A stretch of DNA of 64,000 nucleotides from Deltaproteobacteria bacterium (GCA_003599195.1 QZIZ01000113.1:6705-70704), one strand, 5' to 3'; counted from the first letter of the stretch, positions 21,908 to 52,567 are shown. The notes: generated by a model from the letters alone, not told the origin. Numbers and translations: made by a program.

Positions 21908-22075
21908 ATGTTTTGTGGGGGGAGGGGCCAGGGACCCGTAGGGCGGGCGTCCCCGTCCGCCTTTTGTCCTCTGCTCCTCCCCCAAACCCCCCTCCCCAAC
22001 CCGCATGAATTAAAAATATGGTGCGCATTGCGCACCATAGATGATAAAAAATAATATTAGAAAATTGATATTATT

Positions 22076-22759
22076 TTAGTGCCATGTAGAAGGTAAGATA
22101 ATAACGGCTGCAACTAGTTTGAAGCATATTTCTCCGCGCAGGGGCCCCCCAAGACTAATTGTAAATAAAACTCTCTGTTCCTTCTTCAAGCCAATTTGTT
22201 CTGATGAATAGATTCCATGAGTAAATGGTTTGAGTTTATCTTCCCAAAGGGGATCGGTCACAACCAAATCATAATGAACTCCATTTAATAAAAACCATGC
22301 CCTGGTTTGACGATTACCTGTATAAGATGTTGTTATTTGCCATCTTACATTAATAGGAAATATAAGAGTTAAAGATGCCTTTGCAGGTGTTATTGTAAAT
22401 TCTTCTACTTTAATGCGGTCAGATGTATCCCCAAATAATTCTGGTCCAACATTAATATACTGATTAAGGAGATAGCTATATTTATCTTCGGCTGGTCTCT
22501 GGATCAAGCTCCAAGGCTTAGCTCCGACGAGCCAGTTTTCTGGTTGGTAAGGTTTTGGTACCGGAGTCTGTAAGTGAATCCTCAAAATATCTAAGAGCAT
22601 TGGATCAGTATTATTTTCAAGCACATAATGCCTTCGGCTTAACGCACCATCTTTAGTAACAGGTCTGATCCAACCCTCTCCTTTTGTTCTCAAACCTGCT
22701 ATGCATCTGCCTGACGGTTTTCTGGAATTAGCTAAACAAATTATTTCAAAACCAGGCAC
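22076..22759 (-). CDS. Hypothetical protein (227 aa), N-terminal Cys pair; no family recognised with confidence
   Basis: Sequence MPGFEIICLANSRKPSGRCIAGLRTKGEGWIRPV... AT-rich codon usage. Lies 11 nt downstream of the DUF488 gene. A nucleic-acid-binding (OB-like) fold is only a guess. Confidence 0.7.
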   Translation of the reverse strand: MPGFEIICLANSRKPSGRCIAGLRTKGEGWIRPVTKDGALSRRHYVLENNTDPMLLDILRIHLQTPVPKPYQPENWLVGAKPWSLIQRPAEDKYSYLLNQYINVGPELFGDTSDRIKVEEFTITPAKASLTLIFPINVRWQITTSYTGNRQTRAWFLLNGVHYDLVVTDPLWEDKLKPFTHGIYSSEQIGLKKEQRVLFTISLGGPLRGEICFKLVAAVIILPSTWH

Positions 22760-22770
22760 ATTCTATCTCC

Positions 22771-23208
22771 CTATAAATTAATTATCTCTATTTCACCCCA
22801 TTTATGTTTTAGATACTCCAAAACGAGCCGTCTATGGCAATATTCTGAAGTTGGTTCACTGCATAATAATACGGTAGGAATTTCAAAGATATCAGGCTTG
22901 ATCTTTTCTTCAATTTTCCTTTCTGAAAGTAATTTAATAAAACTTCTTTCGTATTCCCTCCAATCGCCTTTATTTTTCTTATATTCATTTAGTATATTCT
23001 CTGTTGGAGCAAGTAATATTTCATGAATATAATCAGCACCACATAATTCCTTAAGAAAATATTTAAGATCATCACTTTTAGCAAAACCGGATAACTGAGA
23101 AGAGTTATTCAATCGTATATCAATTAGTCTTTTAATCCTATTCTTCCGCAGTATTCCAAAAAAGTCTGCTGCTTTCTTTTTTGTAAATCCTATTGTAAAT
23201 ATTTTCAT
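22771..23208 (-). CDS. DUF488 family protein (paralogue B)
   Basis: IFTIGFTKK...RLIDIRL near the N-terminus and VLLCSEPTSEYCHRRLV near the C-terminus. These match the DUF488 hallmarks (TIGhs...DvR, and llC.E..p..CHR). Confidence 0.8.
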   Translation of the reverse strand: MKIFTIGFTKKKAADFFGILRKNRIKRLIDIRLNNSSQLSGFAKSDDLKYFLKELCGADYIHEILLAPTENILNEYKKNKGDWREYERSFIKLLSERKIEEKIKPDIFEIPTVLLCSEPTSEYCHRRLVLEYLKHKWGEIEIINL

Positions 23209-23224
23209 AATATTGTCCCTTTAT

Positions 23225-23758
23225 TTAAAATAGCGATAATTGTCGCTCGCTATCGCTTTCTATTTCAGGTTTCAACTGATTCTGTGTTTCTAATTCTCCA
23301 TTACCTCGTATGTGATTAACGATAACGCCATTTGCCGCAAGAGTGCGGCCTACTAATAGATAACGATGACATCTATCTGGATTCTCTTCGCTGCACATTA
23401 GTGCAATACGGAATTTTTGAAGACCTTCTTCAATTCTGGCAAGCGCTTCCCTAAAAAATTGTGATTCTGCAAGAGTAGAATAGATTATGTTGCCATTGAT
23501 ATCATAAAATTCTTTTCCTTCTGGCCTTCCCCCCAATTCCCTCCCCAAATATAAGTATTTTATATTATAAGCTTTAACTGCTTTTTTAAGATTATTTATA
23601 TCAAATTGTGGAGCATATTTTGAGTAAGGGTGAGAGCGAATATCAACTAAAACATCAATATGATATTTATTCAATAGCTGAATAAATATAGATAGTTGGT
23701 GGTTTGAATGACCAATTGTAAAAATGACTTTTGAGAAATTGTCTTTAAAATTTGACAT
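23225..23758 (-). CDS. DUF488 family protein (paralogue A)
   Basis: Motifs VIFTIGHSNHQL...VLVDIRSHPYSKYAPQF, YLYLGRELGG and ALMCSEENPDRCHRYLLV. Confidence 0.8.
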   Translation of the reverse strand: MSNFKDNFSKVIFTIGHSNHQLSIFIQLLNKYHIDVLVDIRSHPYSKYAPQFDINNLKKAVKAYNIKYLYLGRELGGRPEGKEFYDINGNIIYSTLAESQFFREALARIEEGLQKFRIALMCSEENPDRCHRYLLVGRTLAANGVIVNHIRGNGELETQNQLKPEIESDSERQLSLF

Positions 23759-23818
23759 ACAGTCTATGCCCTCAGCTCAATTGCTCAGGTTTAATATTTA
23801 TTTAAAAATATCCCGAAA

Positions 23819-23941
23819 TCAATATATCTTTTCCAAAGTGACGAAGAATCTTTCAGTCGCGTGGTAGGCATTTCCAAGATTAGTAACCCTCAAGCTGGCC
23901 AGCATACCCACGGTCTTGCCTCCCAAAATCCGAGGTGGCAT
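23819..23941 (-). pseudogene. Low-GC remnant of a ribD 3' end (last ~40 codons)
   Basis: The minus-strand translation is MPPRILGGKTVGMLASLRVTNLGNAYHATERFFVTLEKIY*. It aligns with the intact RibD C-terminus APKILGGKTAPGMLAGAGAKHLGNALQAKDLQVNKLGPDLLVTGYL*. A stop codon lies immediately upstream. Confidence 0.75.
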
Positions 23942-23974
23942 TATCTAAACGTTTATTCTAATAGTACAACATCC

Positions 23975-25102
<1,128 letters not shown>

Positions 25103-41000: not shown

Positions 41001-43304
41001 ATGGGTAATGATAAGAAATCCTATAACCTGGCTATTGTGGGAGGGGGGCGGCACGGCATGGCCATCCTCGAGGCTCTGGTGCCCACCCGAAAAATTGGAG
41101 TACTCCGGGAGCAGCCATTAAAGGTGGTGGGAGTAGCCGACCTGGACCCGAATGCTCCCGGCATCAATTACGCCAATCGCTTCAACCTCTTTGTGACCAC
41201 CAATTTCACCGACTTTTTCAGCCTTCCCGACCTGGACATCATCGTCAATGCCACCGGCCACTCCGAAGTATCCCAGCAGTTGCGGAAGGAGGCTCCCAGG
41301 AATTTAATGGTTCTCAACGTGGATCGGCCCTTCTTTTCCTGGGAGGACTTCTGGGACCTGATTCCTGTGGAACTATCATCCATTCAAGAGACGGCTCCCT
41401 TGAAACTGGCCATTGCCGGGGGTGGGAAGGGAGGTTATGAAGTGCTGCAGCATCTGGCCGGAAATCCGGGTCTCCGGAAGCGCATAGAAATCCTTGGGGT
41501 GGCCGACCCCAATCCCCTGGCTCAGGGGATGATCCTGGCGAGAAGTATGGGTATTCCAACGTTTGACGATTACGCTCCTCTATTGGCAGAAGACCCCGAC
41601 CTGGTCCTGGAGCTTACCGGTGAAAGCGAGGTACGGGAAGGAATTATCCGCAACAAGCAACCCCACACGCAGATTATCGACCACATCAAGGCCCGTCTCT
41701 TCTGGGAACTGTTGCGCCGGGAGGAAGACCGCCTGCGCAGCAAGGTGGAAAGCGAAATCAAGCTGGCGAGGCAACGCAGCCGTTTTCATAGAATTTTTGA
41801 CCACCTGCCCGATCCGGTGCTGGTTCTGCTTTCCAACTATCTGGTGGATGAAGTGAACCTCACCTTTTTGAACCGCTTTCAAAAAAAGGAAGCGGAAGTG
41901 GTGGGAAAACCCTGTTATGAAGTTTTTCATGGGTTCGATGAGCCTTGCGATGCCAAAGGCCTCGCCTGTCCCCTGCCCCGGGTCCTGGAGAGCTGCCAGA
42001 CCGTCCAGGTATTACATTGTTCGAGTTTTGAAGGGACGGGCCGTTGCGACGAAATTACCATGTCCCCTCTGTTCCCGAGAGAGGCCGCCCAAAAAAGGGT
42101 GGTGGAGGTCATCAAGGACATCACCAGCCGCAAGCAGTTGGAGGCGGCCTTGGATATCTCCCAGGCCGAAACCCGGCAACTGCTGAAAAAGGCCATACAA
42201 GATAAGGCCTTCCTGGAGACCATCATCGACGGGATCGAAGATCACATGATGGTAATCGATCTTAATTACCGCATCGTCGAGGTCAACCGGGCCTTGTTGG
42301 AGATGGTGGGTCTGGAGCGGGAGGAAGTGGTGGGCAAACACTGTTACGAAGTGTCGCACCATCTGAGAGAACCCTGCAATTCCCCCGACCATCCCTGTCC
42401 TTTAAAAGACACGGTGGCCACAGGCAAGGCCGCGTCCGCGATCCACGTCCACTTCAATAAAGACGGCCGGGAAAGCTACGTGCACGTGGTCCACCATCCA
42501 CTGTTCGACGAAGAGGGTCGGATCGTGCAGGTAGTGGACCTGTCCCGGGACATCACCCAGGATATCACCCGCAACCGGATGATGCACGAAGACAAGATGG
42601 CTTCCCTGGTGAAGTTATCCGCCAGCGTGATGCACGAGATCAATAATCCCTTGACCGGCATCCTCAATTTCGTCAAGCTGATCCAACGCATGCTCAAAAA
42701 GGGGGACCCCGACGAACAGGCGTTGGCCAAGATGAAAAATTATCTGGATCTCATTTTTAATGAAACTTCCCGGGTGAGTAAAACGGTTTCCGGCCTGCTG
42801 CCCTTTTCCCGCAAGTCCAAACCGGAATTCAAACCTGTCAATCTCAACGTCCTGCTGGCGGAGACCCTGGCGCTTACCGGCTATCAGATGCGGTTGCAGG
42901 GAATCACGGTGGAGACGAACTTTACCGCCAATCTTCTGCAGGTGATGGCGGATGAAGGGCAAATGAAGCAAGTCTTTTTGAACCTCCTGCTGAATGCCCA
43001 GGAAGCCATGCCCAAGGGAGGCGCTTTAAAGGTGGCCACCAGAAATTCCGGACCCAAAGAGATCATCATCACCGTCGCCGACGATGGCGTGGGCATCCCC
43101 GAGGAAAATATTCCCCAGATCTTCGAATCCTTTTTCACCACCAAAAAAAGCGGCTCCGGGGTGGGACTGGGCCTTTCCGTGGTTCAGGGCATCATCCGGG
43201 ATCATCACGGCACCATAGAGGTGGAGAGCACGGTGGGCCGGGGGTCCAAGTTTACCATCCATCTGCCCGCTGCTAAACCGGGGGAAAAGAATGTTGCCTC
43301 ATAA
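41001..43304 (+). CDS. Cytoplasmic sensor histidine kinase: two Rossmann-like modules, two PAS, HisKA, HATPase
   Basis: N-terminal modules are LAIVGGGRHGMAILEAL...VVGVADLDP and LAIAGGGKGGYEVLQHL...ILGVADPNP. PAS segments carry CYEVFHGFDEPC and CYEVSHHLREPC. H-box SVMHEINNPLTGI, N-box LLLNAQEAM, G-boxes DDGVGI and GSGVGLGLSVV. Confidence 0.88.
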   Translation: MGNDKKSYNLAIVGGGRHGMAILEALVPTRKIGVLREQPLKVVGVADLDPNAPGINYANRFNLFVTTNFTDFFSLPDLDIIVNATGHSEVSQQLRKEAPRNLMVLNVDRPFFSWEDFWDLIPVELSSIQETAPLKLAIAGGGKGGYEVLQHLAGNPGLRKRIEILGVADPNPLAQGMILARSMGIPTFDDYAPLLAEDPDLVLELTGESEVREGIIRNKQPHTQIIDHIKARLFWELLRREEDRLRSKVESEIKLARQRSRFHRIFDHLPDPVLVLLSNYLVDEVNLTFLNRFQKKEAEVVGKPCYEVFHGFDEPCDAKGLACPLPRVLESCQTVQVLHCSSFEGTGRCDEITMSPLFPREAAQKRVVEVIKDITSRKQLEAALDISQAETRQLLKKAIQDKAFLETIIDGIEDHMMVIDLNYRIVEVNRALLEMVGLEREEVVGKHCYEVSHHLREPCNSPDHPCPLKDTVATGKAASAIHVHFNKDGRESYVHVVHHPLFDEEGRIVQVVDLSRDITQDITRNRMMHEDKMASLVKLSASVMHEINNPLTGILNFVKLIQRMLKKGDPDEQALAKMKNYLDLIFNETSRVSKTVSGLLPFSRKSKPEFKPVNLNVLLAETLALTGYQMRLQGITVETNFTANLLQVMADEGQMKQVFLNLLLNAQEAMPKGGALKVATRNSGPKEIIITVADDGVGIPEENIPQIFESFFTTKKSGSGVGLGLSVVQGIIRDHHGTIEVESTVGRGSKFTIHLPAAKPGEKNVAS

Positions 43305-44640
43305 AAAGATCAATATCCTGATCGTGGATGACGAGTTGAGCATCCGGGAATCGTTGAGCGGCTGGCTGCAGCAGGACGGCTATGAGGTGGAGATGGCGGA
43401 GGACGGCCCCACGGCCTTGGCCCGGATCCAGGAAAAGCATTATGACATCATGCTCCTCGATGTCAAAATGCCCAAGATGGACGGGATCACCGTGCTCAAA
43501 GAGCTGAAGGAGAAAAATCCCGAAACCGCGGTGGTGATGATGACGGCCCACGGGGCCATCCAGGACGCGGTGGAAGCCATGAAGCTGGGCGCTTACGATT
43601 ATCTCCTCAAGCCTTTTGACCTCGAGGAACTCAGCCTCACCATTGAAAAACTGGTGCAGATGCAGACCCTGGCCATGGAAAACCTGATTCTCAAGGAACG
43701 GGTGGCCACCATCACCCGCTCCGATAACCTGGTGGGCCAGTCGCCGCCGATACTCAAGCTGTTCGAAACCATCGCCGACGTGGCCCAAAGCGACGCCACC
43801 ATCCTGATCACCGGGGAGACCGGCACCGGCAAGGAACTGGTGGCCAGGGCCATTCACGCCAACAGCCCCCGCTGCTACAGCCCTTTTATCGCCATTAACT
43901 GCGGGGCCTTCACCGAACATCTCCTGGAGAGCGAAATCTTCGGCCATGAAAAAGGCGCGTTCACCGACGCCAAGTATACCAAAAAAGGCCGGCTGGAAAT
44001 GGCCAATGCCGGAACCCTGTTCCTCGATGAGGTGGGAGACATCTCCATGAAGATGCAGATCGATCTCCTGCGGGTCCTGGAAACCCACGAATTCACCAGA
44101 GTGGGAGGGACGATGCCGCTGCACAGCGACTTTAGGGTCATCGCGGCCACGCATCAGGACCTGAAGGAGAGCATCCGCAACCGGACCTTTCGCCAGGACC
44201 TCTTCTACCGGCTCAACGTCATCCACCTGGAAGTTCCCCCTTTAAGGGAGCGTCCGGAAGATATCCCCCTGCTGGCCCAACATTTCCTGCGCCGCTATGC
44301 CACGGAAACCGGCAAAAAGGTCGATTCCATCAGTCCGGGAGCCCTGGAATTAATGCGGCGATATGCCTGGCCGGGAAACGTGCGGGAGTTGGAAAACGCC
44401 ATCGAACGGGCGGTGGTGGTGGGAAAAGGCCGGCAGATCAAACCGGGTGACCTGCCTTTTTGTTATTCCGGGACCGGAACGGAGGAAATGGGAAATCTGT
44501 CTCTGGAGGAGGTGGAGCGCCGCCATATCGCCCAGGTGCTGGCCGCCGAAAGCGGCCACATCTCCAACGCCGCCAAAGTCCTCCGGATCAACCGCACCAC
44601 TCTCTATTACAAGATCAAAAAATACGGTCTGGCGTCTTGA
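43291..44640 (+). CDS. Sigma-54-dependent response regulator (NtrC family)
   Basis: Receiver ILIVDDE...IMLLDVKMPKMDG. AAA+ domain with Walker A GETGTGKE, the GAFTDA loop and ESEIFGHEKGAFT. C-terminal HTH AAKVLRINRTTLYYKIKKY. Has a 14-nt overlap with the kinase gene. Confidence 0.95.
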   Translation: MLPHKKINILIVDDELSIRESLSGWLQQDGYEVEMAEDGPTALARIQEKHYDIMLLDVKMPKMDGITVLKELKEKNPETAVVMMTAHGAIQDAVEAMKLGAYDYLLKPFDLEELSLTIEKLVQMQTLAMENLILKERVATITRSDNLVGQSPPILKLFETIADVAQSDATILITGETGTGKELVARAIHANSPRCYSPFIAINCGAFTEHLLESEIFGHEKGAFTDAKYTKKGRLEMANAGTLFLDEVGDISMKMQIDLLRVLETHEFTRVGGTMPLHSDFRVIAATHQDLKESIRNRTFRQDLFYRLNVIHLEVPPLRERPEDIPLLAQHFLRRYATETGKKVDSISPGALELMRRYAWPGNVRELENAIERAVVVGKGRQIKPGDLPFCYSGTGTEEMGNLSLEEVERRHIAQVLAAESGHISNAAKVLRINRTTLYYKIKKYGLAS

Positions 44641-45284: not shown

Positions 45285-45400
45285 TGTTTAATAATTCAAC
45301 AAAACCCAGGAGGTGTTTGTTTAATTATTAAACATAATATTAGCCTGCAATTTCAACATGTTAAATACTTCACAATCACTCATGTTGAAATATTCAACAT
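45285..45400 (+). promoter_or_regulatory. Candidate enhancer (UAS): three dyads of type TGTT(G/T)AA-N3-TT(C/A)AACA
   Basis: TGTTTAATAATTCAACA at 45285-45301. TGTTTAATTATTAAACA at 45319-45335. ATGTTGAAATATTCAACAT at 45382-45400, with perfect arms. They lie 65-180 bp upstream of the -24/-12 element. Confidence 0.55.
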
Positions 45401-45465
45401 TACTTGGTTTTGGCAATGGCGGTTATTATCCTTATTATCATAATATTTTCATATAGATAACCAAT

Positions 45466-45481
45466 TGGCCCAGTCCTTGCT
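45466..45481 (+). promoter_or_regulatory. Sigma-54 (-24/-12) promoter
   Basis: TGGCCCAGTCCTTGCT fits the consensus TGGCAC-N5-TTGCW, with GG (45467-8) and GC (45479-80) 12 nt apart. It lies 70 nt upstream of the ATG at 45551 and just downstream of an NtrC-type activator gene. Confidence 0.7.
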
Positions 45482-45550
45482 TAAAAAATGGGGAAACCCG
45501 GGAAGATGCCCTAATCCTGAACGGAAATTCCGTGACGGAGATGAAGGCGC

Positions 45551-46336
45551 ATGAAGTGCAGGAAATACGGGCATTGTCGAATTGAGATTTTTTTTCACGA
45601 GCGCATCACGCGCCACGGCAAGTGTGTTTCCCGTGCCTGCGACGTGACTCGGTGCATTGAAAAACACAATCTGGTTAAGGAGGCGCAGATGAAACATAAC
45701 CAAGCAAACCGGGCGCCGCTCCCGGGAGTGCGGATGACGGAAGTCTTCGGGTTTCAAGTGCCCACCAGCGACTATTATCTGCACCGGGGCCACGCCTGGG
45801 CGGTCCTGGAGGATACCGGCCTGGTGCGGGTGGGAATGGATGATTTTTCCCAAAAGGTCCTGGGGCCGGCCGAGAAGGTCAAGATACCCCCGGTGGGCGC
45901 TCTCTATTATCAGGATCATATCTGTATGGCTCTCTTCAGACAAGGAAAGAAGGCCTCCTACCTGGCGCCGGTGGACGGCCCCATCGCCGCCATCAATCCC
46001 AAAGTGCTCGACACCCCCCGGCTGATCCACGACGACCCCTACGGGGAGGGCTGGCTCTATAAGGTGGAGCCCACCAATCTCCGGCGCAATCTGGACAACC
46101 TCTTTTCCGGAGAAGGCAACGTGGAGTGGATCTTTCAGGAGTCCCATCGCTTAATGAATTTCATGGAGACCGAGGTGGGGGTCACCGTCCCGGACGGCGG
46201 CGCCTTCGTGGACGATGTTTTCGGCCAATATCCCGAGTTGGGCTGGCGCCCCCTGGTCCGGGGATTTCTCTTAACCACCTTGAGCCAGGGGTGGCAGAAA
46301 AGATCCGCCGGCGCCGGCCTGGAACGCGGGTTGTAA
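45551..46336 (+). CDS. GcvH-like protein, paralogue 1 (extended)
   Basis: Contains YYLHRGHAWAVLEDTGLVRVGMDDFSQKVLGPA, IPPVG, APVDGPIAAINP and HDDPYGEGWLYKV. An alternative start is the ATG at 45689 behind the strong SD AAGGAGG. The longer form adds a Cys-rich N-terminus (5 Cys). Confidence 0.8.
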   Translation: MKCRKYGHCRIEIFFHERITRHGKCVSRACDVTRCIEKHNLVKEAQMKHNQANRAPLPGVRMTEVFGFQVPTSDYYLHRGHAWAVLEDTGLVRVGMDDFSQKVLGPAEKVKIPPVGALYYQDHICMALFRQGKKASYLAPVDGPIAAINPKVLDTPRLIHDDPYGEGWLYKVEPTNLRRNLDNLFSGEGNVEWIFQESHRLMNFMETEVGVTVPDGGAFVDDVFGQYPELGWRPLVRGFLLTTLSQGWQKRSAGAGLERGL

Positions 46337-46373
46337 TCGGATCAGAGGAATATTTAAGGCGGAGGTCCGAGTC

Positions 46374-46988
46374 ATGAGCAACCGGAACAGCCAGGTGCAC
46401 TGCCTCAGGCCGCAGTTGCTGGACGTCTTTGGTTTTCCCGTGCCCACCACTATTTATTACCTGCACCGGGGACATACCTGGGCGGCGCCCGAGGGACCGG
46501 GCCGGGTGCGGGTGGGTCTGGACGCCTTTTCCCAGAAGATCCTGGGCCCGGCGGACGAAGTCAAACTGCCGGAGATCGGCAAGGTTTATTACCAGGATCA
46601 TGTGTGCATGGCCCTGGTGCGAGAGGGACACCGGGCTTCGGTGGAAGCCCCGGTGGACGGCGTGATCGAGGCCGTCAATCCCAAGGTGCGGCAGCGGCCC
46701 GGCCTGATCCATGACGACCCTTACGGAGAAGGCTGGCTTTTTACCATAACCCCCGCCAATCTCCAGCAAAATCTGGAAAACCTGTTTTACGGTGAGGACA
46801 ATGTCACCTGGATCGAGCAGGAGTCCCAGCGGCTGTTTTACATTATGAACTCCACGGTGGGGGCCACCCTCCCCAGCGGCGGCGCCGTGCTGGACGACGT
46901 TTACGGGCATTATCCGCAATTAAGCTGGCGGCGCCTGGTCAAGGAGTTTCTCTTAACCAACTTAACCAAAGACTGGAAGAAAAGATAA
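46374..46988 (+). CDS. GcvH-like protein, paralogue 2
   Basis: Contains YYLHRGHTWAAPEGPGRVRVGLDAFSQKILGPA, LPEIG, APVDGVIEAVNP and HDDPYGEGWLFTI. The position aligned to the lipoyl Lys reads GHRAS, with no Lys. Confidence 0.85.
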   Translation: MSNRNSQVHCLRPQLLDVFGFPVPTTIYYLHRGHTWAAPEGPGRVRVGLDAFSQKILGPADEVKLPEIGKVYYQDHVCMALVREGHRASVEAPVDGVIEAVNPKVRQRPGLIHDDPYGEGWLFTITPANLQQNLENLFYGEDNVTWIEQESQRLFYIMNSTVGATLPSGGAVLDDVYGHYPQLSWRRLVKEFLLTNLTKDWKKR

Positions 46989-47041
46989 TCCTAAGGATCG
47001 GGCGGCAGGAAAGAGGTGTCCGCCCGGCGGAGGAAGAACGC

Positions 47042-47815
47042 ATGAAACTGGATTGCAAGAACTGCGGGGCGATGGTGGGGCATTGGCTGGTCGTCGAGGT
47101 CCCCGGGCAGGAGCCGGAGTCCAAATCCCAATACAAATGCATCTGCCGCCAATGCGGGGCCACCTGGCAGGTAAAGCACCATCCTTTAAAAGACGGCGAT
47201 CAGGTAAAAGCCGCGGTCATCCCGGAATCTTCTCAGGAGGCGGTGGAGGCCTTCGGGGTGAATACGCCTCCTGAGGACTATTATCTACACCGGGGTCATG
47301 CCTGGGCGGCAGTGGAAGATGGCGGTGAAGTACGGGTGGGACTGGATGATTTTTCCCAGAAGATTCTAGGTCCGGCCGACGCCTTAAAGCTGCCCGAGGT
47401 GGGCACAGCCTTTTTCCAGGATCACATCTGCATGTCCATTCTCAAAAAAGACAACAAGGCTTCCTTCGAAGCACCGGTGGACGGCGTGGTGACGGAAGTC
47501 AACCCCGAGGTGCGCCAAAACCCCCGCCTGCTCCATGACGACCCTTACGGCAAAGGCTGGCTCTTTAAGGTCAGACCCACCAATCTCCAACAAAATTTGG
47601 CTAACCTGTTCTCGGCGGAAAAGAACGAGGCCTGGATCGGCAAAGAAGCCTGCCGTTTGCTGAACCTGATGGATACCACGGCGGGCGTGACCCTGCCTTC
47701 AGGCGGCGCCCTGGTGGGCGATGTTTACGGACATTACCCGCAGTTGGGATGGCGGCGTTTGGTCAAGGAGTTTTTCTTGAGCAGCGTCACCAGGCACTGG
47801 AAGAAACGGGGATAA
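47042..47815 (+). CDS. GcvH-like protein, paralogue 3, with N-terminal zinc-ribbon-like extension
   Basis: N-terminus MKLDCKNCGAMVG...YKCICRQCGATW. Then YYLHRGHAWAAVEDGGEVRVGLDDFSQKILGPA, APVDGVVTEVNP and HDDPYGKGWLFKV. The SD GGAGGAAG lies upstream. Confidence 0.85.
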   Translation: MKLDCKNCGAMVGHWLVVEVPGQEPESKSQYKCICRQCGATWQVKHHPLKDGDQVKAAVIPESSQEAVEAFGVNTPPEDYYLHRGHAWAAVEDGGEVRVGLDDFSQKILGPADALKLPEVGTAFFQDHICMSILKKDNKASFEAPVDGVVTEVNPEVRQNPRLLHDDPYGKGWLFKVRPTNLQQNLANLFSAEKNEAWIGKEACRLLNLMDTTAGVTLPSGGALVGDVYGHYPQLGWRRLVKEFFLSSVTRHWKKRG

Positions 47816-47852
47816 GAAGAAGAGCCCAAAAGCCGCAGACACCGCGGCCGGA

Positions 47853-48713
47853 GTGCCATTCCTCCCCCTCTTTTCGGAAATAAACATGAACGAGCAAGAC
47901 ACCCCCGGCAAGAAGCCATGCATCTGGATGGAAGCGGGCGTGGTGGATTTTAAATTGTGCCACCATTGCTTCGATTGCGCCACCTGCGAATTCGACCGGG
48001 CCATGAGCGCGGTCGCCGCCCAGGAACTGAGCTTGCGGGATGCCTGCGAACTGGAGACAGGCCATCCAGCATACGTCGCGCCCTTGCGGGAGAGGCTGCG
48101 GCAGCGCTCCTTCGAGGAGCTTCTGGAGGATCAGGGCGAATGCTATGCCGCCTTGGAGCGGCCCCAGACCACTGAGGTCTTCGGCTTTAGGGCGCCCACC
48201 TCCATCTATCTGCACCGGGGCCATTCCTGGGTGGCCATGGAGGCCTGCGGCCGGGTGCGCCTGGGGCTGGATGATTTTATCCAGAAAGTGCTGGGGCCTG
48301 CCGATACCATCAGGCTGCCGGCCCCCGGGGAGGCGATGCAACGCGGCCGTGTCGGCCTGACCCTGGTCCGGAAGGGGAAAGAGGCCCCGGTTCCCGCGCC
48401 CCTGGACGGGGTGGTCGAGGTGGTGAATTCCAGGGTCCGGCAGAGAGCCGCGTTGGCCCATGACGACCCCTACGGCGAAGGGTGGCTGTGCGTCGTCACC
48501 CCCACCAATTTGAAGCCGGACCTGGAGAAACTCCTCTTCGGCCGGCGCAACGCCGCCTGGATCGAAAATGAGGCGCATAAGCTGCTGGGGCTGATGGAAT
48601 CCTCGGCGGGCGCCACCCTCACCTCCGGGGGAACGGTTATTGGCGACATTTTCGGGACCCACCCCCAACTGGGTTGGGAAAACCTGGTGCGGGAGTTTCT
48701 CCGCACCGTTTGA
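47853..48713 (+). CDS. GcvH-like protein, paralogue 4, with Cys-rich N-terminal extension
   Basis: N-terminal CIWMEAGVVDFKLCHHCFDCATCEFD. Then IYLHRGHSWVAMEACGRVRLGLDDFIQKVLGPA, APLDGVVEVVN and HDDPYGEGWLCVV. Start uncertain (47853 or the MNEQD Met 10 codons later). Confidence 0.8.
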   Translation: MPFLPLFSEINMNEQDTPGKKPCIWMEAGVVDFKLCHHCFDCATCEFDRAMSAVAAQELSLRDACELETGHPAYVAPLRERLRQRSFEELLEDQGECYAALERPQTTEVFGFRAPTSIYLHRGHSWVAMEACGRVRLGLDDFIQKVLGPADTIRLPAPGEAMQRGRVGLTLVRKGKEAPVPAPLDGVVEVVNSRVRQRAALAHDDPYGEGWLCVVTPTNLKPDLEKLLFGRRNAAWIENEAHKLLGLMESSAGATLTSGGTVIGDIFGTHPQLGWENLVREFLRTV

Positions 48714-48726
48714 ACCTTTTAGAACC

Positions 48727-48771
48727 GGGGCTGGGTGACGGCGCCCGATAAAGCGCCGGACGCCCAGCTCC
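48727..48771 (+). promoter_or_regulatory. Intra-operon GC-rich hairpin without T-tract
   Basis: Sequence ggggctgggtgacggcgc-ccgataaa-gcgccggacgcccagctcc. No U-run follows, so it is not a canonical terminator. Confidence 0.4.
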
Positions 48772-48883
48772 GTCTAGGGGCTTTAACGCTTACAATAACG
48801 GCTTTAGTGCTTACATTAATTACAAGTGAACAAGATCCGGCGCCTTAGGAAGGGCTGGATAGATCACAAGAAAGGCGAGGCCT

Positions 48884-50128
48884 ATGAAGAAACTGGTTAT
48901 TCTGGGTTATGGGGCCGGTGGCACGATGGTGGCCACCAAAATGCGGGAGAAGCTCGATGATAATTGGAAGATCACCGTCATTGACCGGGACCGGCAGCAT
49001 CACTACCAGCCGGGCTGGCTCTTCATCCCCTTCGGCGTGTACAAGCCGGAGGAGTGCATCAAACCCAAGATGGATTTTGTCCTCCCGGGCATCGACTTTG
49101 TCCTGGACGAAGTGACCAACATCGACCCGGTGAAAAAGAAGATCAAGACCAAAAAGGGCAGCTACGACTACGACTGGCTGGTAGTGGGCACCGGCTGCCG
49201 GATTATGCCCGGCGAAATCGACGGTATGAAAGACGACTGGCATGGCGACATCCACGACTTCTATACCCCCGATGGGGCCATCGCCCTTTACAAGAGATGG
49301 AAGTATTTCAAAAAAGGGAAAATTGTTTTAAACATTGCGGAAATGCCCATCAAATGCCCGGTGGCGCCTCTCGAGTTCATCTTCATGGCCGACTGGTTCT
49401 TTACGGTCAACGGGGTCCGGGACGACATCGAACTGGAGCTGGTGACCCCGCTGTCCGGGGCTTTCACCAAACCGGTGGCCACCGCGGCCTTGACCAAACT
49501 CTGCGAGGAAAAGAACATTAAGATCACCCCGAACTTCGATATCGCCGAAGTCGATGCCGCCAAAAAAATAATCTCCTCCGCCAAGGGGGACGAGGTCAAT
49601 TACGATCTGTTGGTGGCCATTCCCCCCAACTTCGGCGCCCAGGTGATTATCGACAGTGAAATCGGCGATCCCATGGGTTACCTGGACACCGACCACCACA
49701 CCTTGAAGTCCAAAAAGTACGAAGGTATGTACATTGTGGGCGACGCCACCAACGTGCCCACCTCCAAGGCCGGGGCCGTGGCCCACTATGAATCGGATAT
49801 CATCGTGGAAAACCTCCTCCGGGAAATCGAGGGCCAGGAGCCGCTGCCGGAATTCGACGGCCACTCCACCTGCTTCATCGTCACCGGCTACGAAAAGGCG
49901 TCCCTCATCGATTTCAACTACAAGGTGGAACCCCTGCCCGGCAAGTATCCCTTCCCGGGCCTGGGACCCTTCACCCTCCTGGGCGAAAGCCACTTGAACT
50001 ACTGGGGCAAAATGATGTTCAAGTGGGTCTATTACAACATGATGCTCAAAGGCAAGGAACTGCCCCTGGAACCCCAGATGTTCATGGCCGGTAAGATGCT
50101 CGGCCATGTCTACCACGTCTACGGTTGA
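48884..50128 (+). CDS. Sulfide:quinone oxidoreductase-family flavoprotein (SQR-like)
   Basis: FAD motif KKLVILGYGAGG, PIKCPVAPLEF (compare IKC.GAP of SQRs), YIVGDATNVPTSKAG, and a second Cys in HSTCFIV. Confidence 0.8.
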   Translation: MKKLVILGYGAGGTMVATKMREKLDDNWKITVIDRDRQHHYQPGWLFIPFGVYKPEECIKPKMDFVLPGIDFVLDEVTNIDPVKKKIKTKKGSYDYDWLVVGTGCRIMPGEIDGMKDDWHGDIHDFYTPDGAIALYKRWKYFKKGKIVLNIAEMPIKCPVAPLEFIFMADWFFTVNGVRDDIELELVTPLSGAFTKPVATAALTKLCEEKNIKITPNFDIAEVDAAKKIISSAKGDEVNYDLLVAIPPNFGAQVIIDSEIGDPMGYLDTDHHTLKSKKYEGMYIVGDATNVPTSKAGAVAHYESDIIVENLLREIEGQEPLPEFDGHSTCFIVTGYEKASLIDFNYKVEPLPGKYPFPGLGPFTLLGESHLNYWGKMMFKWVYYNMMLKGKELPLEPQMFMAGKMLGHVYHVYG

Positions 50129-50826
50129 GAGAGGAGAAGGGAATGCCCGAAAAAACCGAGAAGAAACCGAGCACGGAAGCCCTGATCCTGGAGCGGCTGG
50201 ACCGGATGGAGGACCAGTTGCATGCCCTGGTCAAATCCCAGGAGAGCCTGACGGAGCTGAAGAACGATGTTACTCCTCTGATGAATTCCGCGGTCAGACT
50301 CCTGATCGACGAGTTGGGCATGGTGGAGTCCGGCTTTCAATTGGAGGACCTCTTCGCCCTGCTGAAGCAGGGCTTGCGCAGCCTGCGCAACCTGACCCAG
50401 GCCTTGGAGACGATGGAAAACGTCTTCGAGTTGTGGAATTGCATGGAACCTTTGCTGAAGAGCACCGTTCCCAATCTCATCAACTATATGGATAACCTGG
50501 AGCGCAAAGGGGTATTCCGCACTTACGCGGCCATGCTGGAAGTCCGCGCCAAGGTGGCGGCCCACTACGACGCCGCGGAAATTGCCGACATGAGCGACGC
50601 GTTTGTGCTGCTGCTGAGTATGCTGAAAAAGTTATCCGATCCCCAGATGATTGATTTTATGAACCGGATTCTCGAACTGCCCACGGCCATGAAGCTGGAG
50701 CAGGTCAAGCCCTTGGGACCCTTGGGGATGTTGTCCGCCATGGGCGGCAAAGAGGCCCGGCAGGGCCTGGGAGTGGCCATGGAGCTCACTAAGGCTCTGG
50801 GCAAACTCGGGGCCGGACGGAGCTAG
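50125..50826 (+). CDS. DUF1641-domain protein
   Basis: 233 aa, helical. Has a 4-nt overlap with the SQR-like gene. The pairing of a pyridine-nucleotide-disulfide-type oxidoreductase with DUF1641 is a known recurrent arrangement. The domain call is by recollection. Confidence 0.6.
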   Translation: MREEKGMPEKTEKKPSTEALILERLDRMEDQLHALVKSQESLTELKNDVTPLMNSAVRLLIDELGMVESGFQLEDLFALLKQGLRSLRNLTQALETMENVFELWNCMEPLLKSTVPNLINYMDNLERKGVFRTYAAMLEVRAKVAAHYDAAEIADMSDAFVLLLSMLKKLSDPQMIDFMNRILELPTAMKLEQVKPLGPLGMLSAMGGKEARQGLGVAMELTKALGKLGAGRS

Positions 50827-50891
50827 GCCGGCGGGACGTAGTTAGAAAAACAAATTTGGAATTTCGTGGAATTTTGGGCCTGGACTCTAAT

Positions 50892-50923
50892 AGTTCCAAG
50901 TTCCAGGTTCCAAGTTCCAAGTT
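50892..50923. repeat. Heptamer array (GTTCCAA/GTTCCAG) x4
   Basis: Sequence agttccaagttccaggttccaagttccaagtt. Confidence 0.9.
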
Positions 50924-50953
50924 AAATGAATGCCTTATTCTTCAGTGCATTAG

Positions 50954-50981
50954 GGGCGCAGCCGGGCTGCGCCCTTTTTTC
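50954..50981 (+). terminator. Rho-independent terminator closing the GcvH-like/SQR-like operon
   Basis: Stem gggcgcagc / gctgcgccc, loop cgg, followed by tttttt. Confidence 0.8.
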
Positions 50982-51064: not shown

Positions 51065-52567
51065 ATGAAAGCCCTGTTGATCTATCCCGAGACCCCGGAC
51101 ACCTTCTGGAGCTTGCGGCATGCCATCGAGTTCCTGGGGGTGACGGCTTGCAGTCCGCCCCTGGCGCTTTTTACCGTGGCCGCCATGCTGCCCCGGGATT
51201 GGGACAAAAAATTGGTGGATCTGAACGTGGAGCCCCTGACGGAGGAACACCTGGCCTGGGCGGACCTGGCTTTTATCAGCGCCCTGACCATCCAGTCCCG
51301 GTCGGCGGACGAAATCATCAGGCGGTGCCGGGCCGCGGGGGTTAAGGTCTGTGCCGGCGGGGTCCATTTCAGCAGCCCCGATGAGCCTTTCGAAGCGGTG
51401 GACCATCTCTTTATCGGCGAGGCGGAAGAGACCCTGCCCCTTTTTCTGGCGGACCTGGCCCGAGGCGAGGCCCTGCCTGAATACCGGGCTTCCCGGTTTC
51501 CGGACCTGGCCGCCTCGCCCAACCCTGCCTGGGAGCTGCTGGACCCCTCCAAGTATGCGAACATGTTGGTCCAGGTATGCCGGGGCTGCCCCCACGATTG
51601 CGAGTTTTGCCAGGTCATCGTCCAATACGGCCGCGTCCCCAGGTACAAAAGGCCGGACCAGGTGGTGGCCGAGGTTCAGGGGGTTTTGGACGCAGGTTGG
51701 CGGGGGGTGCTGACCTTCGCGGACGACAATTTTATCTGCCATCACGGCAAGGCCAAAGACATCCTGCGGGCCTTGGAGGTTTGGCAGGCCGCCCGGGGCT
51801 ATCCCATGCTGTTCGTAGCCCAGGCCAGCATCGACGTGGTGGACGATCAGGAGCTGCTGGAACTCATGGAACGGGCAGGTTTCGTGGGCCTCTTCCTGGG
51901 GATTGAGACCCCGGATCCCGCGTCGCTCAAGGAATGCAATAAACGCCAGAATCTCAACCGGGACCTGGCGGCCGCGGTGCACACCATCCAGGCCCACGGC
52001 ATGGAGGTCATCGGCGGCTTCATCGTCGGCTTCGACTCGGACACCGCGGGCGTTTTCACCCGGCAGGCGGAATTCATCGAAGAAGCAGCCATTCCCACCG
52101 CCATGGTCAACCTGCTGGCGGCCGCGCCCGGCAGCCGCCTGTTTAAGCGCCTGAAGGAGGAGGGCCGTCTCCTGGGAGACGGCGTGGGCGACGGCAACAC
52201 CGCCATCAATGCCGGCTCCGTCAACTTCATCCCCAAGATGGGGCGGGAGATTTTGCTTACGGGTTATAAAGACCTGCTGAACCGGCTCTTCGCGCCCGCG
52301 CCTTACTACCGCCGGGTCCTTGCCTTCCTGAAGCGCCACCGCCCCAATCCCCGGATCGTCGTCCGCCCCCCCACCCGCCGGGACGTCATGGCCATGATGA
52401 AGATTATCCTGGCCTTGGGCTTCAAAGAACCGGGGCGGCGGGCCTTCTGGTCATTCCTGGCGCGGTTGCTCATTAAGCATCCCCGGCAACTTCCCGTCGG
52501 CATCACCATGGCCGCGTCCGGCCGCCATTTCCGTATTCTCAAAGACCGGTTCTGCGCCGCGGTCTAA
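51065..52567 (+). CDS. B12-binding-domain radical SAM protein (C-terminal DUF4070-like region)
   Basis: The N-terminal MKALLIYPETPDTFWS...SALTIQS resembles a cobalamin-binding domain. CxxxCxxC cluster in RGCPHDCEFCQV. SD GGTGAGG lies before the ATG. Confidence 0.85.
   Translation: MKALLIYPETPDTFWSLRHAIEFLGVTACSPPLALFTVAAMLPRDWDKKLVDLNVEPLTEEHLAWADLAFISALTIQSRSADEIIRRCRAAGVKVCAGGVHFSSPDEPFEAVDHLFIGEAEETLPLFLADLARGEALPEYRASRFPDLAASPNPAWELLDPSKYANMLVQVCRGCPHDCEFCQVIVQYGRVPRYKRPDQVVAEVQGVLDAGWRGVLTFADDNFICHHGKAKDILRALEVWQAARGYPMLFVAQASIDVVDDQELLELMERAGFVGLFLGIETPDPASLKECNKRQNLNRDLAAAVHTIQAHGMEVIGGFIVGFDSDTAGVFTRQAEFIEEAAIPTAMVNLLAAAPGSRLFKRLKEEGRLLGDGVGDGNTAINAGSVNFIPKMGREILLTGYKDLLNRLFAPAPYYRRVLAFLKRHRPNPRIVVRPPTRRDVMAMMKIILALGFKEPGRRAFWSFLARLLIKHPRQLPVGITMAASGRHFRILKDRFCAAV

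Follow-up and report, generated by a model that had tools for sequence, protein, structure and literature searches.

Extended, lysine-less H-protein-like paralogues in a sigma-54 operon with an SQR-family flavoprotein and a DUF1641 protein

Gene organisation of the locus

We analysed a 64,000-nucleotide (nt) stretch of DNA from a Deltaproteobacteria bacterium (GCA_003599195.1, QZIZ01000113.1:6705-70704), referred to below as the window, whose numbering is used throughout. A preliminary description, made from the sequence alone, had drawn attention to six co-directional open reading frames (ORFs) at 45551-50826, and the ORF listing bears this out: four tandem genes for proteins resembling the H protein of the glycine cleavage system (GcvH) are followed by genes for a sulfide quinone reductase (SQR)-family flavoprotein and a DUF1641 protein. 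Pfam searches place three more co-directional genes in front of them, encoding a histidine kinase, a response regulator and an M54 peptidase. The four H-like proteins belong to the H-protein fold superfamily, yet they lack what defines GcvH and LbpA, namely the lipoyl lysine, scores at equivalog level and the partner genes. The features of the locus are as follows (aa, amino acids).

41001..43304, + strand: sensor histidine kinase; N-terminal Rossmann-like region, two PAS, HisKA and HATPase_c domains (Pfam); 3' end overlaps the response-regulator gene
43291..44640, + strand: sigma-54-dependent response regulator; receiver, AAA+ sigma-54 interaction domain and Fis-type helix-turn-helix; Pfam Sigma54_activat 231 bits
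44688..45245, + strand: archaemetzincin-type (M54) zinc metalloprotease; Pfam Peptidase_M54 71.6 bits; last gene of the regulator operon
45285..45399, no strand assigned: four 17-nt TGTT-N9-AACA-like repeats (repeat search), candidate upstream activating sequences (UAS)
45466..45480, + strand: sigma-54 -24/-12 promoter TGGCCCAGTCCTTGC; motif conserved in orthologues
45551..46336, + strand: extended H-like paralogue 1, 261 aa; H-fold core between a degenerate N-terminal zinc ribbon and the C-terminal extension; hairpin tip Gly
46374..46988, + strand: extended H-like paralogue 2, 204 aa; core and C-terminal extension only; hairpin tip E84-G85; no hairpin Lys (GHRAS)
47042..47815, + strand: extended H-like paralogue 3, 257 aa; N-terminal module resembling rubredoxin or a zinc ribbon (CKNCG...CICRQCG); Asp at the hairpin tip
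47853..48713, + strand: extended H-like paralogue 4, 'long' subfamily; probable start 47886; hairpin tip Gly
48884..50128, + strand: type III SQR-family flavoprotein; NF049943 674 bits; redox Cys158 (PIKC) and Cys330 (HSTC)
50143..50826, + strand: DUF1641 protein, 227 aa from ATG 50143; ORF opens at TTG 50125; PF07849 31.4 bits
50952-50976, + strand: intrinsic terminator; 11-bp stem with 8 G-C pairs, 3-nt loop, T run; ends the operon

The start of copy 1 at 45551, which had been left conditional, is upheld by a Shine-Dalgarno sequence and ATG that are kept in 5 loci. We rejected an internal ATG at 45689, despite its strong AAGGAGG ribosome-binding site, because orthologues retain the ATG further upstream together with its Shine-Dalgarno sequence and the ribbon sequence. 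Comparison of homologue N-termini makes ATG 47886 a likelier start for copy 4 than GTG 47853. The DUF1641 gene is present as described, but its supposed 4-nt overlap with the SQR gene needs a TTG start; homologues are 225-227 aa long, which favours a start at ATG 50143, 14 nt past the SQR stop. Neither a terminator nor a sigma-54 motif was found between copy 4 and the SQR gene, and the operon ends at a terminator as strong as had been claimed.

Antisense ORFs of 232-293 aa (minus strand; 45449-46147, 46182-46919 and 47787-48668) overlap the H-like genes. We rejected them as genes: in related loci they only mirror the coding strand (cluster c19), and they are high-GC artefacts. Copy 4 and the SQR gene are separated by a 170-nt gap with an unusually stable fold (z = -4.7), and a long GC-rich hairpin in it (48726-48772) is shared by loci L086 and L087. 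An inverted repeat, TCC(A/G)G...CTGGA, lies some 20-45 nt 5' of the SQR start (48842-48865); its exact form occurs in 8 of the 12 metagenome loci in which H-like genes accompany the SQR gene, is degenerate in the rest and occurs in 0 of the other SQR loci. RNAalifold gave weak support for the conserved repeat. The repeat and hairpin could act on RNA stability or processing, or serve as an operator. Rfam and tRNA scans of the window returned nothing, and therefore no riboswitch or leader RNA is evident.

The H fold and the lipoyl-lysine position

All four paralogues, which are 48-61% identical to one another in pairwise comparisons, contain the H-like core that had been recognised by motif: their Pfam GCV_H (PF01597) scores are 72.3, 69.7, 81.7 and 58.5 bits for copies 1-4, against a cut-off of 22.2. 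An AlphaFold2 (AF2) model of copy 2, built from a 112-sequence alignment, was of good quality (pLDDT, the predicted local distance difference test score, 87.4; pTM, the predicted TM-score, 0.84). Using Foldseek, residues 1 to ~128 of this model superpose on the H proteins 1onl, 3ab9 and 3klr with a target-normalised TM-score of 0.91-0.93 and a root mean square deviation of 1.3-1.6 A.

The residue at the position of the lipoyl lysine had been described as variable among the copies, and it is. HMMER alignment to solved H proteins puts G, G, D and G in the lipoyl-lysine column of copies 1-4, a column that falls at the tip of the modelled hairpin, E84-G85 in copy 2, and the nearby Lys/Arg residues sit one or two positions downstream. 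The same holds across the family. At this column, 150 family representatives and the four paralogues of the window together supplied 151 residues, with G in 73, D in 17, E in 16, S in 12, K in 7 and N in 7. Of the relatives encoded in the loci that we retrieved, 1 of 76 with the extension has the E(S/T)xK motif, as against 36 of 40 non-extended relatives of the GcvH/LbpA type. Nor do the copies reach the GcvH equivalogs, scoring 47.8-79 bits against 115.85 for TIGR00527 and 117 for NF002270.

The preliminary description had likened these proteins to LbpA, as lipoylated swinging arms that shuttle sulfur or electrons to the SQR. The fold itself is in keeping with that idea, as are the Lys residues one or two positions past the tip in copies 1, 3 and 4, and a distant fused relative (P0157) joins three H domains to HdrD-like CCG domains, although without the C-terminal extension. 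However, the hairpin of copy 2 has no Lys at all, and neither lipoate ligase, LipA/LipS-type nor sHdr genes were found among the recurrent neighbours of the family. Since the tip reads G, G, D and G and the E(S/T)xK motif is so unevenly distributed, a swinging-arm role for the window proteins is very unlikely on sequence grounds. The analogy with LbpA falls with the lysine, which is missing in all four copies and across the family, and we consider the lipoylated-carrier model largely refuted and most improbable.

The paralogue alignment does bear out the other distinguishing feature reported for these proteins, a conserved extension of ~70 aa past the canonical H-protein end; the motifs quoted earlier are likewise present in all four copies. 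In the copy 2 model the extension is predicted to form helices at residues 130-135, 141-162, 176-179, 185-192 and 195-201, and Foldseek found no structural match for it in the PDB. The isolated extension and the isolated N-terminal Cys modules, compared with Pfam at E values up to 10, returned noise only. Residues conserved family-wide comprise G33, H34, W36, G48, D50, D51, F52, G58, P66, G69, P93, G96, N102 and PY..GW in the core, and L137, W146, a DGG loop, W185 and F192 in the extension.

The N-termini are more variable. Copy 1, to which a Cys-rich N-terminal extension had been ascribed, has a degenerate zinc ribbon (CRKYGHC...CVSRACDVTRC, 45551-45690) in which two ligand Cys are lost; the ribbons of its orthologues in L086 (4655-), L087 (4649-) and L088 (3401-) are intact (MKCKKCGHW...CVCRACGETW; CxxC...CxCxxC). 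The N-terminus of copy 3 gave only weak zinc-ribbon/rubredoxin matches in Pfam. Members of the 'long' subfamily (P0143, P0147 and P0167) begin with two C-x13-C-x5/6-C-x2-C-x-(F/Y)D repeats containing 8 Cys, a domain with no Pfam match that could be an iron-sulfur (Fe-S) or Zn module; copy 4 (47886-48180) and its close relative P0002 keep the first repeat and have lost the second. The QDH(I/V)CM motif is present in three copies, 1-3, as reported. We rejected its Cys as a family-wide catalytic residue, as copy 4 and the majority of family members do not have it and it is confined to a subgroup.

The pattern of conservation raises another possible role, that of a ligand or metal escort. The vestigial arm-docking cleft, together with the extension and its DGG loop, would take up a metal or small molecule without a covalent bond and pass it on to the redox enzyme encoded alongside; candidate ligands are sulfane-sulfur species, the head group of a quinone and a metal ion. 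The motifs that mark the cleft, H-x-G-H-x-W and G-x-D-D-F, are kept across Desulfobaccales and Acidobacteriota members, with H31, H34, W36 and D50 invariant in the 112-sequence alignment and D51 present in 134 of 154 family representatives. These residues presumably map to the strand and loop lining the aminomethyl-lipoate cleft of canonical H proteins, such as those of pea and E. coli. The DGG loop is both conserved and predicted to be flexible, and the Cys-rich N-termini of some members would suit such a role. Set against this, the proteins have none of the known ligand motifs, conservation of H31 weakens across the wider family and the Acidobacteriota members are without Cys. We regard an escort function as improbable.

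Sigma-54 control and the regulator genes

The promoter TGGCCCAGTCCTTGC lies in an AT-rich gap 5' of copy 1. Its GG/GC positions (TGG-N9-TGC) are kept in 7 orthologous loci with a variable spacer, and 44 of the 52 family loci have TGG-N9-TGC within ~450 nt 5' of their first H-like gene, compared with 0.23 expected by chance; in extended-family loci the form is mostly TGGCAC/T-N5-TTGC. As a control, the region 5' of SQR homologues had a match in just 8 of 70, none of them a good one. Judged from these motif counts, sigma-54 control, as proposed for the operon earlier, is real, and the promoter belongs to the H-like genes and not to the SQR as such. The four 17-nt repeats begin at 45285, 45318, 45359 and 45383, 70-180 nt upstream, and are conserved in L086-L088; they are candidate enhancer (UAS) sites to which the response regulator may bind.

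The response regulator matches the NCBIfam models AtoC, NtrC and ZraR, all under their cut-offs. The M54 gene is well above the Pfam cut-off (71.6 bits against 24.4) and just under that of NCBIfam archmetzin (142.6 against 145). Its zinc site reads HELGHTFSLPHC-x4-C-x-M...CxxC, with Ser replacing the Gly of HExxHxxGxxH. The N-terminal region of the kinase (~380 aa, 41001-42150) gave two Rossmann-like NAD-binding matches, and each of its PAS domains has a C-x10-13-C-x6-C-P cysteine pattern; the N-terminus and PAS cysteines suggest redox or nucleotide sensing. Acidobacterial counterparts of the kinase have HAMP domains instead.

The SQR and DUF1641 pair

With NF049943, the NCBIfam model for 'type III sulfide quinone reductase' (cut-off 525), the flavoprotein scores 674.4 bits. 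Among solved structures human SQOR is the nearest (E 3e-49), with PIKC aligned to PVKC and HSTC to YTSC, the sites of the two catalytic Cys, Cys201 and Cys379 in the human enzyme. The retention of both redox Cys, noted previously, extends to ~80 homologues: C158 is present in 81/81 and C330 in 80/82, the other 2 having an in-frame stop there, presumably TGA. These stops (two loci among L086-L165) are consistent with selenoprotein variants, and these homologues agree with the NCBIfam label 'selenoprotein subtype'. By sequence, then, the flavoprotein qualifies as a type III SQR, and it is predicted to oxidise sulfide.

The DUF1641 protein matches PF07849 at residues 191-227 (31.4 bits against a cut-off of 21). 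Its gene lies directly 3' of the SQR gene in 75 of 80 metagenomic loci, whose SQR homologues are 65-97% identical to that of the window, and the 5 exceptions end at a contig edge. A DUF1641 profile search of PDB sequences gave no match to HucM, ForE or Ncp. Proteins with this domain have been found to scaffold dehydrogenases, attach them to the membrane and conduct quinone, as HucM does for Huc, ForE for ForCE and Ncp for Ndh (PMC13524794), and an SQR partner is not mentioned in that work. In an Ignicoccus proteome, a DUF1641 gene beside a gene for an FAD-dependent disulfide oxidoreductase is listed without comment, both being up-regulated (PMC3149612).

Distribution and neighbours of the extended family

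A profile search of 1.84 billion representative proteins, clustered at 50% identity (E up to 1e-30), returned at least 238 clusters of the extended family. Most members are 210-320 aa long, with the H core followed by the extension at the C-terminus, and every extended relative with a source name is labelled as a glycine-cleavage H protein. A scan of one genome per species found extended members in Desulfobaccales, Desulfobacterales and Syntrophobacteraceae, in many Acidobacteriota, in Thermoanaerobaculia and Bryobacterales, and in Gemmatimonadota, Ignavibacteria and Chitinophagaceae.

We then surveyed gene neighbourhoods at no more than 80 loci per survey, genes in related loci being called simply as longest ORFs. 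Clustering of the neighbours in 48 extended-family loci gave a sigma-54 response regulator in 36, a histidine kinase in 29, an M54 gene in 27 and an Fe-S/NrfD pair in 22; these counts are lower bounds, many contigs ending early. No gcvT, gcvP or lpd was found in the flanking genes examined or among the recurrent neighbour clusters of the 48 loci. The Fe-S/NrfD pair consists of a four-cluster Fe-S protein and an NrfD-type membrane protein, similar to HmcB/HmcC or HybA/HybB but below the equivalog cut-offs. The Fe-S subunit has no Tat leader, which therefore implies that it faces the cytoplasm. Where the H-like gene is divergent, the pair heads the kinase-regulator-M54 operon. In some loci the H-like gene instead adjoins HdrA-like, MvhD or formate-dehydrogenase genes, and there are fusions of the extended H-like domain to a 2x[4Fe-4S] ferredoxin, to FlpD/MvhD and to Molydop_binding.

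Several further features of the relatives were noted. P0120, P0042 and P0111 (L001 10001-10903) have a further C-terminal domain of ~90 aa, with the pattern LKREVFRVL.RTSED..FR...SGDL.WLNEHIG.LT.KQL and no Pfam match, and P0120 is followed immediately by Sec-containing HdrA-like, FlpD and formate-dehydrogenase genes. In the Acidobacteriota loci L024, L029, L032-L036 and L039, a reading of the cluster sequences puts the H-like gene just 3' of apparent 2-oxoacid:ferredoxin oxidoreductase alpha/beta genes. Genes for a Crp/Fnr-type regulator and for a cytochrome c likewise seem to be found repeatedly near these H-like genes.

The H-like proteins had been thought dedicated to the SQR. In fact, SQR/DUF1641 genes lie near H-like genes in only 1 of the 48 extended-family genome loci (L009, the closest relative, with three copies), and among the 80 SQR loci the H-like genes, M54 and regulator accompany the pair only at SQR identities of 86% or more to the window protein. 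Of these linked loci, L086-L090 carry four copies, ordered as in the window, L091-L093 carry two or more and L094-L097 carry one, on the opposite strand. The six-gene block is therefore conserved beyond this genome, but only in a narrow Desulfobaccales clade and not widely. The pair is without H-like genes in two contig-truncated fragments at 88-92% identity and in all 68 loci at or below 81%.

This distribution bears on whether the H-like proteins could be a self-sufficient output of the kinase, regulator and archaemetzincin, with SQR/DUF1641 a downstream passenger in one clade, linked by co-expression only. They could then be PspA-like feedback regulators of the activator, substrates of the M54 peptidase or stress-protective binding proteins. 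Many Desulfobacterales and Desulfobaccales loci have nothing but H-like genes behind the promoter, next to M54, regulator and kinase genes; the M54 gene always closes the regulator operon; the pair dispenses with H-like genes at all the more distant SQR loci; and the Fe-S/NrfD genes are co-oriented with the regulator genes, heading the kinase-regulator-M54 operon with no sigma-54 motif of their own. Against an independent output, the ferredoxin and MvhD fusions argue for physical membership in electron-transfer assemblies, three redox modules (Fe-S/NrfD, SQR/DUF1641 and HdrA-like/formate dehydrogenase) recur beside the family, and the linkage to SQR outlasts rearrangement, 13 other loci of one clade keeping it despite changes in H-like copy number (4, 3, 2, 1) and orientation. 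On balance, we consider this alternative unlikely, though it is the main rival of the reading favoured below.

Other features of the window

A gene for a B12-binding radical-SAM protein with DUF4070 (51065-52567) lies just 3' of the terminator; its position is kept only in L086 and L087, and it is probably unrelated to the operon. Elsewhere in the window, at 22000-24000, there is a low-GC island (35% against ~60% GC) with minus-strand ORFs at 22076-22759 and 23225-23758, where a DuOB (dual-OB) protein and a DUF488 protein match PADLOC PDC-M45A/B (E 1e-37 and 8e-55). The island is probably a horizontally acquired candidate anti-phage system. PADLOC gave no match for the H-like, M54 and DUF1641 proteins, the SQR not being scanned, and a defence role for the operon itself is therefore unlikely.

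Discussion

The results presented above suggest that two separately conserved modules have come together in one sigma-54 operon, in which the H-like proteins, without an arm, act as adaptors or escorts at quinone-linked redox modules. We favour this reading tentatively, as plausible but not quite probable. The first module comprises the histidine kinase, the sigma-54 regulator and the archaemetzincin, together with a -24/-12 promoter that drives one to four extended H-fold proteins; in other phyla its regulator operon is preceded by the HmcBC/HybAB-like Fe-S/NrfD pair. The second comprises the type III SQR and the DUF1641 protein, which, by analogy with its characterised counterparts, would scaffold the flavoprotein and conduct menaquinone.

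Such an operon might work as follows. A redox- or sulfide-related signal would activate the kinase, and the phosphorylated regulator would bind the TGTT-N9-AACA repeats and open the sigma-54 promoter, so that the four H-like proteins, SQR and DUF1641 would be produced together. SQR would oxidise sulfide at Cys158/Cys330 and FAD and reduce quinone, forming a quinone-reducing complex with DUF1641. The H-like proteins would serve as non-lipoylated docking or adaptor subunits linking a partner or ligand to quinone-coupled modules with no covalent arm, and some of their N-terminal Cys modules may hold a metal centre. What we infer of their function, then, is that they are probably non-lipoylated adaptors at such modules. 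The fusions to ferredoxin, MvhD/FlpD and Molydop_binding domains point in this direction, as would the published role of DUF1641 proteins in scaffolding and quinone transport (PMC13524794), and the H-like genes do stand in HdrA-like, formate dehydrogenase, Fe-S/NrfD or SQR neighbourhoods.

Several observations weigh against this adaptor reading. A contact of the H-like proteins with SQR/DUF1641 is presumed; most SQR/DUF1641 pairs occur without H-like genes, and a linkage restricted to one clade could reflect mere shared descent. Some 19 of the 48 extended-family loci have no nearby redox module. Since, in divergent arrangements, the Fe-S/NrfD genes ride with the regulator operon and are not part of the sigma-54 output, their presence fits a sensing role as well as that of a partner. 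The residues conserved in the extended family are mostly structural, the core having no conserved Cys, Lys or obviously reactive residue. Finally, the AF2 model of the DUF1641 monomer, although all-helical, is of low confidence (pLDDT 45).

A broader proposal is that the lysine-less H fold is the dedicated sigma-54 output of an unrecognised, phylum-spanning redox-signalling module of kinase, activator and archaemetzincin, with or without the cytoplasm-facing Fe-S/NrfD pair, and acts as an arm-less adaptor or carrier at the quinone pool; a Desulfobaccales clade would have captured SQR-DUF1641, which would be a fourth class of DUF1641 conduit after Huc, ForCE and Ndh-Ncp. We offer this as a speculation that is, as it stands, rather unlikely. 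In keeping with the earlier remark that no described system of this composition was known, our literature search turned up no paper on the extended family, on its linkage to sigma-54 and archaemetzincin, on the operon or on an SQR-DUF1641 complex.

These findings have consequences for annotation. The name 'glycine cleavage system protein H' is attached to thousands of database entries from Desulfobacterota, Acidobacteriota, Bacteroidota and Gemmatimonadota, many of them without its defining residue, and metabolic reconstructions that count such lysine-less proteins as GcvH, for example in the reductive glycine pathway, are therefore wrong. The family has a clear and testable signature of sigma-54 promoter, two-component system and archaemetzincin, and is found repeatedly beside modules linked to quinone. 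A previously unknown accessory component of the chains for anaerobic respiration or sulfide handling may thus come to light. The module may also give the first physiological context for bacterial archaemetzincins.

Comparison with known systems

With GcvH (PF01597, TIGR00527) the window proteins share the fold and the core motifs H.W, G.(T/D)D, P..G, P..G..N and DPY..GW. They differ in having no lipoyl lysine, no E(S/T)xK and no nearby gcvT or gcvP, in scoring about half the equivalog cut-offs, and in adding the helical extension of ~70 aa (no PDB or Pfam match), variable Cys-rich N-termini and sigma-54 expression. LbpA of the sHdr system (PMC6067878) is likewise H-like, often in tandem and encoded beside sulfur or redox enzymes. 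However, LbpA needs a lipoylated lysine, a dedicated lipoate ligase and maturation genes. The LbpA-type relatives that we recovered (Thioalkalivibrio, Ectothiorhodospira) keep ESGK and have no extension, the opposite of the window proteins, which have no shdr or slpl genes nearby, their neighbours being the kinase, regulator, M54, SQR and DUF1641 genes.

An arm-less use of this type of barrel has a precedent. NqrA and RnfC contain a lysine-less 'barrel-sandwich hybrid' (PF13375), a lipoyl/H-type beta-barrel that is structural and without an arm, within quinone- or ferredoxin-linked respiratory complexes. The only PF13375 match, a weak one, was in one distant fused relative; for the window proteins this domain is offered as a precedent.

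Pairs resembling those of the HmcBC, HybAB and NrfCD modules lie beside extended H-like genes in Acidobacteriota, Bacteroidota and Gemmatimonadota. The family pair differs from these modules in falling below the equivalog cut-offs and in having no Tat leader and no catalytic molybdo- or haem subunit, and the window itself has no module of this type.

FisR controls sigma-54-dependent sulfide-oxidation operons such as sqr-pdo of Cupriavidus pinatubonensis. In these and in the window alike, a dedicated activator governs the sigma-54 promoter from which an SQR gene is expressed. They differ in that the window activator is a response regulator with a separate kinase, that there is no persulfide dioxygenase gene and that the sigma-54 promoter belongs to the H-like genes.

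The DUF1641 gene invites comparison with Huc-HucM, ForCE and Ndh-Ncp (PMC13524794). The window pair is distinguished by an SQR-family flavoprotein as the partner, by an SQR that keeps its C-terminal amphipathic region and by a DUF1641 protein with no sequence match to the solved HucM, ForE and Ncp chains. What it shares with them is a DUF1641 gene placed directly after that of a quinone-reducing dehydrogenase, and a predicted all-helical product with a C-terminal DUF1641 domain. The strict pairing of SQR with DUF1641 would thus extend the principle of a DUF1641 quinone conduit to a sulfide-oxidising flavoprotein.

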